Assembly: GCA_964016885.1 (NCBI GenBank)
Contig: OZ024742.1
Coordinates: 161,572,001 to 161,636,000 of the forward strand
Reading direction: 5' to 3'
Source of the DNA: Eledone cirrhosa
Lineage: Eukaryota
DNA: 64,000 nucleotides
The notes below the pieces were generated by a model. It ran no database searches, was not told where the DNA came from, and was given only the letters and a program-made list of their open reading frames with translations. A program made the position numbers and the translations under genes. Every line of letters begins with the position of its first letter. Position 1 is the first letter of the stretch. This document shows positions 1 through 19,593 of the stretch, piece by piece.

Positions 1-551
1 TATATGTATATATATGTATATATATATGTATATATATATGTATATATATATATATATATGTATATATAAATGTATATATATATGTATATATATATATGTA
101 TATATATATATGTATATATATATATATATATATGTATATATATGTATATATATATATGTATATATATATATATATATGTATATATATATATATATGTATA
201 TATATATATATGTATATATATGTATATATATATATATATATGTATATATATATATGTATATGTATATATATATATGTATATATATATGTATATATATGTT
301 TATATATATGTATATATGTATATGTATATATATATGTATATATATGTATATGTATATATATATGTATATATATGTATATATATGTATATATATATATGTA
401 TATATATGTATATATATGTATATATATATGTATATATATGTATATAAATATATGTATATATATATGTATATATATGTATATATATATGTATATATATTAT
501 ATATATATATATATGTATATATATATATGTATATATATTATATATATATAT

Positions 552-647
552 AAAAATAATACAGATACAATATAGACACAAACACATATATATAGTTTAT
601 CAAAGTTCTTTCGTTGCACATTTGCAACATCGTCAGTGGTGTTATTG
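552..647 (-). ncRNA. Satellite cassette copy 1 with minimal hammerhead-like core (PLE pLTR-derived)
   Basis: Minus strand reads CUGACGA-U-GUUGCA-AAUG-UGCAAC-GAAA-GAACUU; perfect 6-bp stem II; stems I/III weak; homologous to 57529-57620. Confidence 0.7.
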
Positions 648-2084
648 TATATATATATATATATTTATATATATATGTATATATATATGTATATATATAT
701 ATGTATATATATATGTATATATATATGTATATATATGCATATATATATATATGTATATATATATGTATAAATATATATATATATATGTATATATATATGT
801 ATATATATATATATATATATATATATATGTATATATATATGTATATATATAGAGATATGTATATATATATATGTATATATATATATATGTATATATATAT
901 GTATATATATGTATATATATATGTATATATATATGTATATACATATCTATATATATGTATATATATATATATGTATATATATATATATATGTATATATAT
1001 ATGTATATATATATATATATATATATGTATATATATATATATATATGTATATATATATGTATCTATATATGCATGTATATATGTATGTATATATATATGT
1101 ATATATATATGTATATATATATGTATATATATATGTATATATATATGTATATATATATGTATAAATGTATATATGTATATATATATGTATATGTATATAT
1201 ATATATATATATGTATATATATATATGTATATATATATGTATATATATATATGTATATATATATGTATATGAATATATATATGTATATATATATGTATAT
1301 ATATATATATAAGTATATATATATATATATGTATATATATATATGTATATATATATGTATATGTATATATATATATGTATATATATATGTATATATATAT
1401 ATCTATATATATATATATATGTATATATATATGTATATATATATATGTGTATATATATGTATATATATATGTATATGTATATATATATACGTATATATAT
1501 ATGTATATATATATATATGTATATATATATGTATAGATATGTATATATATGTATATATATATATGTATATATATATATGTATATATATATGTATAGATAT
1601 GTATATATATGTATATATATATATGTATATATATATATGTATATATAAATGTATATATATATGTATATATATATGTATATATATGTATATATATATGTAT
1701 ATATATATATATATATGTATATATATGTATGTATATATATATGTATATATATATATATATGTATATATATATATGTATATATATATATGTATATGTATAT
1801 ATATATATGTATATATATATGTATATATATGTTTATATATATGTATATATGTATATGTATATATATATGTATATATATGTATATGTATATATATATGTAT
1901 ATATATGTATATATATGTATATATATATATGTATATATATGTATATATATGTATATATATATATATATATATGTATATAAATATATGTATATATATATGT
2001 ATATATATGTATATATATATGTATATATATTATATATATATATATATGTATATATATATATGTATATATATTATATATATATAT

Positions 2085-2180
2085 AAAAATAATACAGATA
2101 CAATATAGACACAAACACATATATATAGTTTATCAAAGTTCTTTCGTTGCACATTTGCAACATCGTCAGTGGTGTTATTG
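2085..2180 (-). ncRNA. Satellite cassette copy 2 with hammerhead-like core
   Basis: Identical to 552-647. Confidence 0.7.
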
Positions 2181-4238
2181 TATATATATATATTTATATA
2201 TATATGTATATATATATGTATATATATGTATATATATATGTATATATATATGTATATATATGCATATATATATATATGTATATATATATGTATAAATATA
2301 TATATATATATGTATATATATATGTATATATATATATATATATATATATATGTATATATATATGTATATATATATAGAGATATGTATATATATATATGTA
2401 TATATATATATGTATATATATGTATATATATATGTATATATATATGTATATATATATCTATATATATGTATATATATATATATATATATATATATATATG
2501 TATATATATATGTATATATATATGTATATATATATGTATATATATATATGTATATATATATGTATCTATATATGCATGTATATATGTATGTATATATATA
2601 TGTATATATATGTATATATATATGTATATATATATGTATATATATATGTATATATATATGTATATATATATGTATAAATGTATATATGTATATATATATG
2701 TATATGTATATGTATATATATATGTATATATATATATGTATATATATATATGTATATATATATGTATATGAATATATATATGTATATATATATATGTATA
2801 TATATATATATAAGTATATATATATATATATATGTATATATATATGTATATATATATGTATATGTATATATATATATGTATATATGTATGTATATATATA
2901 TATCTATATATGCATATATATATATATGTATATATATATGTATAAATATATATATATATATGTATATATATATGTATATATATATATATATATATATGTA
3001 TATATATATGTATATATATAGAGATATGTATATATATATATGTATATATATATGTATATATATGTATATATATATGTATATATATATGTATATATATATC
3101 TATATATATGTATATATATATATATGTATATATATATATATATGTATATATATATGTATATATATATGTATATATATATGTATATATATATATATGTATA
3201 TATATATATGTATCTATATATGCATGTATATATGTATGTATATATATATGTATATATATATGTATATATATATGTATATATATATGTATATATATATGTA
3301 TATATATATGTATATGTATATGTATATATATATGTATATATATATATGTATATATATATGTATATATATATATATGTATATATATATGTATATGAATATA
3401 TATATGTATATATATATGCATATATATATATAAGTATATATATATATATATATATATGTATATATATATGTATATACATATGTATATGTATATATATATA
3501 TGTATATATATATGTATATATATATATCTATATATATATATATATGTATATATATATGTATATATATATATGTGTATATATATATATGTATATATATATG
3601 TATATGTATATATATATATGTATATATATATGTATAGATATGTATATATATGTATATATATATATGTATATATATGTATATATATATGTATAGATATGTA
3701 TATATATGTATATATATATATATGTATATATATATATGTATATATAAATGTATATATATATGTATATATATATGTATATATATATATGTATATATATATG
3801 TATATATATATATATATATTGTATATATATGTATATATATATATGTATATATATATATATATATGTATATATATATATATATGTATATATATATATATGT
3901 ATATATATGTATATATATATATATATGTATATATATATATGTATATGTATATATATATATGTATATATATATGTATATATATGTTTATATATATGTATAT
4001 ATGTATATGTATATATATATGTATATATATGTATATGTATATATATATATGTATATATATGTATATATATGTATATATATATATGTATATATATGTATAT
4101 ATATGTATATATATATGTATATATATGTATATAAATATATGTATATATATATGTATATATATGTATATATATATGTATATATATTATATATATATATATA
4201 TGTATATATATATGTATATATATTATATATATATATAT

Positions 4239-4332
4239 AAATAATACAGATACAATATAGACACAAACACATATATATAGTTTATCAAAGTTCTTTCGTT
4301 GCACATTTGCAACATCGTCAGTGGTGTTATTG
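4239..4332 (-). ncRNA. Satellite cassette copy 3 with hammerhead-like core
   Basis: Core identical to 552-647. Confidence 0.7.
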
Positions 4333-16740: not shown

Positions 16741-16791
16741 AGATTCCTGATGATTTCTAATGAATGAAACAGTTCTAGTCCTGTAGAATCT
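16741..16791 (+). ncRNA. Type I hammerhead ribozyme in PLE pLTR
   Basis: AGAUUC-CUGAUGA-U-UUC(UAAU)GAA-U-GAAA-CAG(UUCUAGUC)CUG-UA-GAAUCU: 6-bp stem I, 4-bp stem III, GUA cleavage triplet. Confidence 0.88.
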
Positions 16792-16807
16792 CATCTATAT
16801 TAAAACT

Positions 16808-17332
16808 ATATATGTATATATATATGTATCTATATATGCATGTATATATGTATGTATATATATATGTATATATATATGTATATATATATGTATATATATA
16901 TGTATATATATATGTATATATATATGTATATATATATATATGTATATATATATGTATATGAATATATATATGTATATATATATGTATATATATATATATA
17001 AGTATATATATATATATATATGTATATATATATGTATATATATATGTATATGTATATATATATATGTATATATATATGTATATATATATATCTATATATA
17101 TATATATATGTATATATATATGTATATATATATATGTGTATATATATATATGTATATATATATGTATATGTATATATATATATGTATATATATATGTATA
17201 TATATATATATGTATATATATATGTATAGATATGTATATATATGTATATATATATATGTATATATATATATGTATATATATATATGTATATATATATATT
17301 ATATATATATATATATATATATATATATATAT
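16808..17332. repeat. Resumption of the higher-order TA satellite
   Basis: Same ordered landmarks (gtatctatatatgcatg, gaat, aagt, tcta, tagat). Confidence 0.85.
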
Positions 17333-18411
17333 AGTATTTACGTATCGAGAAAGAGAAAAAAAGGGGCGATAGGTGATACATATAGTTATTTGCCAAGTAG
17401 CGTATGCCAAAGGTGCTCGATACTAGTGCCGGCAGTATTAAATATTCGAAGTGTTAATATTTAGTGGGCTAGCGAGTTAGCAGAGCGTAAGCACGTGGGA
17501 AAGTAAAAAATCGGAGAATAGACCGTTAAAACATGTTTATTTAAAATATCACCTACGTATGTTTCGCCCAGTTGGGCTTCTCAAGGGCATAAATAATCAC
17601 AAGTGTTCCCTATATTGCTCGGAAAGAGTTTTTGGGGTTAAATCTACATCAAGGTTCATTGCTCGCAAAAATATCTTGTTTTGATTTTGCAGCAGGTCAA
17701 GGGAGATAACTCTGGCCGGTGTTAGGGCAGTCTTTCCCGGACAATTTTCTTTTTTTTTTTTTTTTTTTTTTTGCCGCATCCGTTTGTCTGAGGCTGGGTC
17801 TGGTATGCAAGGATTGTTTTCTGGGTGTTATTTTGCAGCGCCTGCCCGCCGGGGTGTTAAGACTTGTTGCAGGGAGATCCAGTGTACTATTTCACTCTTC
17901 ATCCTTAACCCATCTGAAGAAGGATATTTTTAAGCGATGTCTACAACTTATCGCTGTTTCAGCTCTGCTGTTGATGAGCTCGTGGGGTGCAGTTATGATG
18001 TGGTAGAGCTCCATGAGGCAAAGATCGCATTTCCTCTTGAAGTTGTACGGTGCAGCCCTGCCGACAATCTCCCATGCGTGGAGAAGCTGATGTTTAAGTC
18101 CTTTAGTGATGTGATGTAGTCCGCGAGCGAAGTGGAGTGCCTTAGTTTTCTATTTGTGAAAGAGTGGAGATGTGTTCGAAACCTAATTTTGAACGGGCCG
18201 GAGGTGGCCCCTATATAATGTTTAACGCTATTGTGGCTAGTAATAGTGCATCTATATATAACCCTATCAGTCAAGCAGTATCCTCTAAGGGGGCAGCGTC
18301 CTCTGTCGCGGCAGTTGCAATTTCTGTCGCGGTTCCGTCTATTTCCCACGGTAAGGCTATCATTGTTGCTGCCTACGTTGTTACCTACGCTACCGCAGCT
18401 GTCGTTAGCAC
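17333..18411 (-). mobile_element. PLE 3' fragment (GIY-YIG + 3' UTR with HHR variant)
   Basis: ORF 17993-18349: [35 protein letters not shown]. Confidence 0.88.
17548..17590 (-). ncRNA. Minimal hammerhead, U3-A8 variant
   Basis: UUGAGAA-GCCC(AACU)GGGC-GAAAC(AUAC)GUA-GG. Confidence 0.65.
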
Positions 18412-19593
18412 GTATATATGTAGTATATATATATGTATATATATATGTATATATATATGTATATATATATATGTATATATATATATATGTATATATATGT
18501 ATATATATATATATGTATATATATATGTATATATATATGTATATATGTATATATATGTATATATATAAATATGTATATATATATATGTATATGTATATAT
18601 ATATATGTATATATATGTATATATATGTTTATATATATGTATATATATATGTTTATATATATGTATATATATGTATATGTATATATATATGTATATATAT
18701 GTATATGTATATATATATGTATATATATGTATATATATGTATATATATATGTATATATATGTATATATATGTATATATATATGTATATATATGTATATAT
18801 ATATGTATATATATGTATATATATGTATATATATGTATATATATATGTATATATATATATGTATATATATATATGTATATATATTATATATATATATATA
18901 TATATATATATATATATATATATATATATATATATATATATATATATATATATATATATATATATATATATGTATATATATATGTATATATATATATAAA
19001 AATAATACAGATACAATATAGATACAAACACATATATATAGTTTATCAAAGTTCTTTCGTTGCACATTTGCAACATCGTCAGTGGTGCTATTGTATATAT
19101 ATATAATATATATATATATATGTATATATATATGTATATATATATATATATGTATATATATATATGTATATATATATGTATATATATGTATATATATATG
19201 TATATATATATGTATATATATATGTATAAATATATATATATATGTGTATATATATATATATATATGTATATATATATATATATATATGTGTATATATATA
19301 TATATACATATGTATATATATGTATATATATATATATATGTACATATGTATGTATATATATATGTATATATATATGTATATATATGTATATATATATATA
19401 TGTATATATATTACTGTATATATATATATATATATATATATATATATATATATATATATATATATATGTATGTATATATATATGTATATGTATATATGTA
19501 TATATATATATGTATATATTTATGTATATATATATATATATATATATATATATATATATATATATATATATGTATATATATATATATATATAT
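18412..19593. repeat. Further TA satellite segment
   Basis: TA/TATG repeats containing cassette copy 6. Confidence 0.85.
18998..19093 (-). ncRNA. Satellite cassette copy 6 with hammerhead-like core
   Basis: Two substitutions relative to copies 1-5, both outside the core; one (gtgcta) matches the PLE copies. Confidence 0.7.

Follow-up and report, generated by a model that had tools for sequence, protein, structure and literature searches.

A hammerhead-bearing slice of a Penelope-like pseudo-LTR, probably multiplied by local DNA duplication within a TA microsatellite of Eledone cirrhosa

In the satellite model, local tandem repeats that were seeded by a transposon expand by unequal crossover. 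For the termini of Penelope-like elements (PLEs), local amplification by this route has been proposed (bioRxiv 10.64898/2026.07.22.740005, in its accessible part), and the locus described here resembles such transposon-seeded repeats in its nested unequal duplications, its breakpoints in repeat DNA and its restriction to one region, although its unit is a nearly pure degenerate dinucleotide repeat with a ribozyme remnant. Metazoan non-LTR retrozymes are likewise head-to-tail repeats whose type I hammerhead stems from a PLE pseudo-LTR (pLTR), and in the accessible parts of the sources they have homogeneous units of 150-450 bp, each with a canonical hammerhead, and spread to unlinked loci with linear and circular RNA (PMC7229834; 10.64898/2026.07.22.740005). 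Here, in contrast, the units are unequal, measure 1.5-4.4 kb and are ~96% microsatellite, the hammerhead is minimal, a 0.65-kb block has none, and 7/7 exact junctions fall within 320 kb. Target-site duplications, a further retrozyme trait, would be masked in TA repeats. A literature search, mostly at the level of abstract openings, found no description of a microsatellite-spaced hammerhead array. We consider it likely, with a probability of roughly 0.84, that a pLTR slice was caught once in a TA microsatellite and was then multiplied passively by local DNA duplications. The cassette array is unlikely to represent a new mobile element.

The window, a stretch of 64,000 nucleotides (contig OZ024742.1, positions 161,572,001 to 161,636,000, forward strand), opens as assembled with a TA/TATG higher-order repeat (1-19593) holding six cassettes of ~97 nt, all on the minus strand, with core-to-core distances of 1533, 2152, 4367, 2435 and 7959 between successive copies (Table 1). 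Both the six coordinates and the first four core spacings agree with the original prediction of a six-copy cassette in a single orientation, while its statement that the cassette is the sole complex sequence stands for 1-12527 and fails for 1-19593, inside which two PLEs of other families are inserted (12528-16808 and 17335-18410). The first of these has an inverted end, 12594-12771 matching 16807-16629 at 98.9%. The array extends ~570 bp beyond the window on its upstream side, where a further homologous piece follows at ~4.4-5.0 kb. Token alignments of the spacers between units scored 42-392, whereas shuffling gave maxima of 14-26 and a pair of unrelated TA arrays scored 6-18; the spacers between cassettes are a true higher-order repeat.

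Table 1. Positions of the array, its cassettes and the associated PLE sequences in the window
Feature	Position	Strand	Description
Main degenerate T(AT)nG higher-order array	1..12527		five cassettes = 480 of 12,527 bp
Cassette c1	552..648	-	slice from within PLE pLTR; core of minimal hammerhead 609-636; cut predicted at 603/602
Cassette c2	2085..2181	-	sequence identical to c1
4.37-kb tandem duplication	2212..10984 (blocks ~2212-6600, 6600-10984)		4351 identities, 13 mismatches
0.65-kb tandem duplication	2230..3548		652 identities, 7 mismatches; no cassette or ribozyme
Cassette c3	4239..4333	-	altered 3' T-tract common to c3, c4 and c5
Cassette c4	8606..8700	-	sequence identical to c3; arose in the 4.37-kb duplication
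Cassette c5	11042..11135	-	1-nt deletion
Other-family PLE insertion	12528..16808	+	RT and GIY-YIG remnants 12751-14022
Array segment	16809..17334		landmarks in common with units 1-4
5'-truncated PLE, another family	17335..18410	-	GIY-YIG remnant; U3-A8-type hammerhead from 17584
Array segments either side of c6	18411..19593		
Cassette c6	18998..19094	-	position-7 G in common with distal copy at C3:161889748
Decayed parent-family copy	54102..57830	-	ORF remnant 56961-54709, 85% identical to intact L079 ORF
Parts of the decayed copy			inverted arm 57012-57823; hammerheads 54260-54355 (minus), 57530-57621 (plus)

Nested duplications with shared variants, restricted to one region, were found here: c1 equals c2, c3 equals c4 and is near c5, and c6 shares a G with the distal copy c7. 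The breakpoints of the 4.37-kb duplication, which has one cassette in each block, and of the 0.65-kb duplication fall within TA tracts, off the cut site. Part of the copy number could be an assembly artefact in which two haplotypes or mis-joined long reads were placed in tandem, most plausibly at the 4.37-kb block, as the blocks differ at 13 of 4,364 aligned sites, which allelic divergence would fit, and two 200-N runs occur in the 433-kb neighbourhood (none in the array itself). We judge this very improbable, given that variants nested at several scales would not arise from random read error and that an array of several cassettes would persist without one block. It is extremely unlikely that the array was made in one or a few PLE reverse transcriptions by template jumping on TA-rich RNA or target DNA. 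PLEs do insert as tandem or inverted copies, with (TA)n as target (PMC8557442, in its accessible part), but the stepwise, nested differences between units point to successive events, and the 3' register of the family is found at neither array end.

Read on the minus strand, all six cassettes give CUGACGA-U-GUUGCA-AAUG-UGCAAC-GAAA, just as CUGACGA, a 6-bp hairpin and GAAA had been foreseen for every copy. The core CUGANGA...GAAA...NUH, with G10.1-C11.1 and an extra nucleotide at 9/10.1, is present and unbroken in 7/7 cassettes, the distal one included, for which near-zero divergence suffices without selection. Helix II is stable (predicted pair probability 0.98-0.99), whereas helix I has 2 contiguous bp and a predicted pair probability of 0.01-0.06, against 0.29-0.83 in a sister family that combines the same AG-AA-CU-H helix III with a helix I of 4-5 bp and backs the cut register. 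In helix III, G15.2-C16.2 pairs and the AA loop would turn into two A-A mismatches in the dimeric form, for which 4/6 positions are self-complementary in subfamily B versus 6/6 in subfamily A. The 2-bp helix I, the CUU site and the AA loop are the same as in the subfamily to which the cassette belongs, B, with 3,007 matches. Cleavage sites with U17 cut poorly, and U17 can mispair with A14. The suspected weakness of stems I and III was supported; the features that make the hammerhead weak are the 2-bp helix I, the AA loop and the CUU site.

Minimal type I hammerheads of metazoan PLEs, the Drosophila virilis Penelope variant above all, have the same extra nucleotide at 9/10.1, G10.1-C11.1 and 6-bp helix II, and they too lie in the pLTR and have a short helix III in which 2 nt are inserted; their helix I is 4-5 bp, or 2 bp in D. 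virilis, the length of the weakly predicted helix I here (PMC4209133, in its accessible part). From these minimal PLE hammerheads the cassette motif differs in the non-palindromic AA insert of subfamily B and in U at position 17, and in being excised from the pLTR and flanked by microsatellite. The accessible part of PMC11875169 yielded no mention of CUU triplets. An alternative fold, cut at CUA and with 6 extra nucleotides separating helix I from core nucleotide C3, was dropped since the sister family backs the proximal register, and a type III topology was looked for in the cassette and not found. The hammerhead-model search that the original prediction called for gave no hit: hammerheads are absent from the best 150 of 440 Rfam rows for the whole window and were not matched in 540-660 at E<=10, the rows being low-complexity miRNA matches alone, under gathering scores. 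This blank is no argument against a minimal motif. Judged by its sequence, the motif is a genuine minimal PLE-type hammerhead, though weak, and it is predicted to be a passenger with low activity.

A check of all 40 scored matches of the cassette in the genome showed that 33 run on into the pLTR, while TA lies on either side of the other 7. The exact 33-mer core occurs 3,007 times in subfamily B, 5,424 times in subfamily A and 35 times as CUC variants, so that the parent PLE has over 8,400 exact hammerhead-core matches genome-wide. Of the first 100 subfamily-B matches listed, one carries the loop-II A that all seven cassettes share, in keeping with one origin. The suggested PLE link and minimal PLE-type hammerhead were upheld, with 7/7 cores and the source pLTR found. 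Two more copies of the cassette sequence in the window, without TA flanks, lie within a decayed PLE (Table 1).

The parent family retains intact 1,217-aa ORFs between pLTR hammerheads, which lie 268 nt past the ORF stop and are repeated at a spacing of 4,133 bp. The single ORF (L079) has, by motif only, an RT (YVDD 833), a CX2-5CxxC linker (CX4CxxC at 1084), a C-terminal GIY-YIG (YSIRC 1107 and YIGET 1123) and CCHH residues; Pfam and PDB sequence searches with the full ORF gave no match. Also, pLTR tandems, inverted ends, an optional tail and (TA)n targets are present. The RT, CX4CxxC linker and C-terminal GIY-YIG, as well as the pLTR-ORF-pLTR arrangement, inverted ends and (TA)n targets, liken the family, placed by motif, to EN+ PLEs of the Neptune/Nematis type (PMC8557442, in its accessible part), of whose structure the array retains just 97 nt. 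No RNA run is among the sequencing runs listed as matching the parent element. Among 81 distinct outer ends sampled, 53 lie at +223 to +246, 26 at +280 or more, two between and none at +100 or below, and TA occurs within 40 nt of the end in 70/81. The 3' limit of the cassette lies 85 nt past C3, as against at least +223 for 79/81 sampled family ends, and a normal PLE end was ruled out for it (0/81 sampled ends there). One unrelated subfamily-A copy (L136) breaks at almost the same AT-rich site. The cassette, 97 nt long, comes from within the hammerhead-bearing pLTR of a high-copy PLE.

Each exact TA-cassette junction occurs seven times in 3 Gb, all within C3:161.57-161.89 Mb (six here and one 300 kb off), in searches that were exact or allowed <=1 mismatch and that older diverged copies could escape. 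A 40-nt spacer landmark has six genome occurrences, 6/6 inside the window. With relaxed matching at the 5' junction, 9 more loci came up, with TA/TACA upstream in 8/9; all nine extend beyond the cassette 3' end, and the normal end is reached in 8/9. The distal copy ~300 kb away sits beyond an apparent host gene, has no unique flank in common with the window, holds a single cassette and is unbroken across the cut site. Two of six distal array pieces outscored all 100 shuffles against the main units (controls 0/7). A long segmental duplication was not supported for this copy, which has no more than TA tracts and pieces of mobile elements in common with the window.

These results bear on a microsatellite retrozyme, in which transcription of the minus strand, perhaps from nearby pLTRs in minus orientation (12528-12771, 17335, 19594), would yield an RNA that every hammerhead cuts, giving (UA/CA)n monomers of 1.5-4.4 kb for reinsertion by PLE RT/GIY-YIG. 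The intact core and stable helix II, the single orientation of all cassettes, the cut register backed by the sister family and the intact parent ORFs argue for it, the distal copy past the apparent host gene may reflect an RNA-based hop, and the Anolis PLE hammerhead cleaves in the presence of its protein (PMC11167929). We nevertheless hold it to be very unlikely. No unlinked copies of the exact junctions or the spacer landmark were found in the genome search, unit lengths are unequal, the duplication breakpoints are out of register with the cut site, the distal copy runs through that site, and helix I is poorly paired relative to the sister family. The unit also lacks the +241/+290 end region where parent insertions end; in Anolis, the corresponding tail/ORF-start region is where RT starts, and it contains the minimum of RNA that is required (PMC11167929). 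In vitro cleavage of minimal PLE hammerheads was none or low (PMC4209133, in its accessible part). The idea of units cut into monomers and moved in trans, with cassette-plus-TA copies at unlinked loci, was not supported: exact junctions are restricted to one 320-kb stretch, breakpoints ignore the cut site and the 3' end region is missing. A proto-retrozyme with a microsatellite body, in which pLTR-driven transcripts are cut with the aid of PLE protein and monomers or circles are sometimes reinserted nearby, the 300-kb copy being the record, is a long shot as well.

For the preferred reading of passive DNA-level duplication, sister insertions suggest that a subfamily-B element would have entered (TA)n, 5'-truncated at a recurrent point ~12 nt upstream of C3. 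The last ~155 nt, including the normal 3' ends, may then have been deleted between an internal AT-rich tract and flanking TA. Nested microsatellite duplications of 0.65, 1.5, 2.4 and 4.4 kb, the pattern of which is visible in the units, would have carried the cassette along, perhaps because TA tracts slipped or recombined unequally with one another. The homologous piece at a distance of 300 kb could stem from an earlier duplication or from ectopic exchange, and both arrays would later have been interrupted by other PLEs and by LINEs.

The array is most likely a clear worked example of how duplication of DNA, within the TA target of a PLE itself, turns the PLE terminus into a tandem repeat, which is the first step proposed for the birth of retrozymes, and it cautions that tandem hammerheads by themselves are no proof of a retrozyme; beyond this, the favoured reading has little wider importance. 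If cleavage and RNA-based reinsertion were true, ribozymes would be linked to microsatellite expansion, and a proto-retrozyme would mean that microsatellites can grow by way of RNA and would show a retrozyme as it is being born. The two PLE subfamilies, with thousands of copies and different weak hammerheads, offer a test of whether PLEs need hammerhead cleavage.

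A degenerate T(AT)nG repeat, starting ~570 bp upstream of the window, fills its initial 12.5 kb with five ~97-nt cassettes interspersed (c1 to c5, at 552, 2085, 4239, 8606 and 11042), and a sixth (c6) lies at 18998. As the original prediction had stated, all six have the same orientation within TA-type repeat, and their positions and spacings (1533, 2152, 4367 and 2435) were recovered, with a last spacing of 7959. On the minus strand they read CUGACGA-U-GUUGCA-AAUG-UGCAAC-GAAA. The span 1-19593 given there does contain the repeat with its cassettes but is broken by two insertions of other Penelope-like elements (PLEs). 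The array structure is real, and an assembly artefact could account for part of the cassette copy number.

Features of the window accompanying the cassette array
Feature	Window position	Strand	Remark
Other PLE insertion	12528-16808		interrupts array
Other PLE insertion	17335-18410		interrupts array
Third other PLE insertion	19594 (start)		
Broken frames	33700-36500	minus	RT-like and integrase-like pieces, resembling LTR-retrotransposon pol
Likely host-gene exons	49437-63491	minus	
Decayed parent-PLE copy	54102-57830		with inverted arm
Tandem repeat	58779-59450		~47-bp units
794-aa open frame	59881-62265	minus	no Pfam match; among likely host-gene exons
Weak PARG catalytic-domain match	62952-63491	minus	E 1.6e-4, below Pfam cut-off

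A genome search with the cassette gave 416 candidates, of which 40 were scored (identity 97-100%) and all inspected. The predicted link to PLEs is borne out, as 33 of these 40 run on into one common non-repetitive sequence, the 3' UTR/pseudo-LTR (pLTR) of a PLE; seven have TA on both flanks. The protein of this parent element has 121 scored genome matches (identity 94-100%), several of them ~1,217-aa ORFs flanked by two hammerheads 4,133 bp apart. Pfam and PDB searches with the ORF returned no match, and its putative assignment as a PLE rests on motifs. The intact ORF at one locus (L079) carries a long low-complexity Asn/His-rich insert at residues ~250-415, upstream of the RT. Two subfamilies, A (GAAAG-AU-UUA) and B (GAAAG-AA-CUU), have 5,424 and 3,007 exact 33-mer matches in the genome, and a CUC variant has 35; the array cassettes are of form B.

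Rare spacer variants served as landmarks between array units. By its alignment (4351 identities, 13 mismatches), the pair 2212-6620 and 6560-10984 is evidently a single 4.37-kb duplication, with one end shortly beyond c2 and the other shortly before c5, both inside TA tracts and off the predicted cut sites (602, 2135, 4287, 8654 and 11089). A 1.53-kb block links c1 with c2, a 2.43-kb block links c4 with c5, and a 0.65-kb duplicated block in unit 2 (652 identities, 7 mismatches) has no cassette. Cassette variants are nested like the spacer blocks: c1 equals c2, c3 equals c4 with c5 close, and c6 shares a G with a distal cassette, c7. A loop-II A found in one of the first 100 listed subfamily B matches is common to all seven cassettes, consistent with capture having happened once. 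If monomers were set by the ribozyme, units should be equal and joined at the cut site; unequal blocks with TA-tract ends are contrary to that.

Each exact TA-cassette junction occurs seven times in 3.0 Gb, six times in the window and once, in the same orientation, at C3:161,889,748 (c7), so that among exact junction matches the expected TA-flanked cassettes at unlinked loci did not materialize; a 40-nt spacer landmark has six genome occurrences, all in the window. A relaxed 5'-junction search added nine loci, eight with TA or TACA upstream, which marks the cassette 5' end as a recurrent 5' truncation point. All nine extend beyond the cassette 3' end and eight reach a normal end. Short solo pLTR insertions (L127-L134) are truncated at one point ~10-12 nt upstream of the hammerhead core position C3 and joined to TA/TACA, which suggests a microhomology-favoured site. 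Ends were mapped at 65 loci, a non-random sample picked by likeness to cassette or ORF, where 86 rows gave 85 distinct contexts and, less four internal pLTRs, 81 outer ends: 53 at +223 to +246 from core position C3, 26 at +280 or beyond, two between and none at +100 or below. The cassette ends at +85, and what it lacks includes part of the ORF-start region; for an Anolis PLE, PMC11167929 maps to the tail/ORF-start region both the sites where RT starts and the minimal RNA that is required. Unequal units, duplication ends off the cut sites and a cassette without the normal PLE 3' end speak against an array of self-cut monomers mobilised in trans.

The main support for such a route, in which minus-strand RNA is cut at hammerheads and (UA/CA)n monomers are reinserted by PLE proteins, is c7, and an RNA hop is a possible origin for it. 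This copy agrees with the window cassettes at both junctions and in the neighbouring spacer landmark (score 24, reached by 0 of 100 shuffles), is uninterrupted across the cut site and is surrounded by array pieces split by LINE fragments. Comparison with the window found no common unique flank; c7 and the window array are separated by what is probably a host gene. Ectopic DNA-level copying between TA tracts is the simplest account.

PMC7229834 describes non-LTR retrozymes as repeats of 150-450 bp that carry canonical type I hammerheads and give rise to circular RNAs; the array differs from retrozymes in unit size, homogeneity and dispersal and is therefore not classed with them. Three near-perfect tandem repeats, at C3:161773271-161774208 (~466-bp unit, with a hammerhead motif at 161773994), 161834556-161836959 (~555) and 161855172-161858853 (~465), are better retrozyme candidates. 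Li et al. (bioRxiv 10.64898/2026.07.22.740005) derive retrozymes from pLTRs and propose that unequal crossover amplifies PLE termini locally, and the locus fits this local-amplification first step. The hammerhead is most likely a passenger within a locally expanded microsatellite.

Rfam gave no hammerhead match among the best 150 of 440 rows for the window, nor for 540-660 at E<=10. The predicted motif is judged real on sequence comparison, as a PLE hammerhead of the minimal type: with the ribozymes of PMC4209133 it shares the extra base at 9/10.1, G10.1-C11.1 and 6-bp helix II. Its predicted helix I of 2 bp and its short helix III, which has an insert of 2 nt, resemble those of D. virilis Penelope. 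Hammerheads of at least four further repeat families lie in the window (17584, ~19770, 24252, 26435), one a U3-A8 core variant. A nearby sister family (for example C3:161673670, 161880765 and 161944808) has an identical AG-AA-CU-H helix III with a helix I of 4-5 bp, in favour of GAACUU^UG as the cut register. U17 is a poor cut site. Helix II is predicted to be stable (pair probability 0.98-0.99), and the suspected weakness of helix I reappears in the model, at 0.01-0.06 for the array, 0.00-0.05 for both parent subfamilies and 0.29-0.83 for the sister family; as helix I pairs are improbable in both parents too, the weakness is a family trait and not array decay. The parent subfamilies (UUA, CUU) both have 2-bp helix I and differ in cut triplet and helix III, where six of six positions are self-complementary in A and four of six in B. 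Despite the weak predicted fold, activity is possible because the Anolis PLE hammerhead, according to PMC11167929, cleaves only with protein and is dispensable for insertion. Subfamilies A and B together with the sister family could serve as a natural series on the question of whether cleavage is required of PLE hammerheads.
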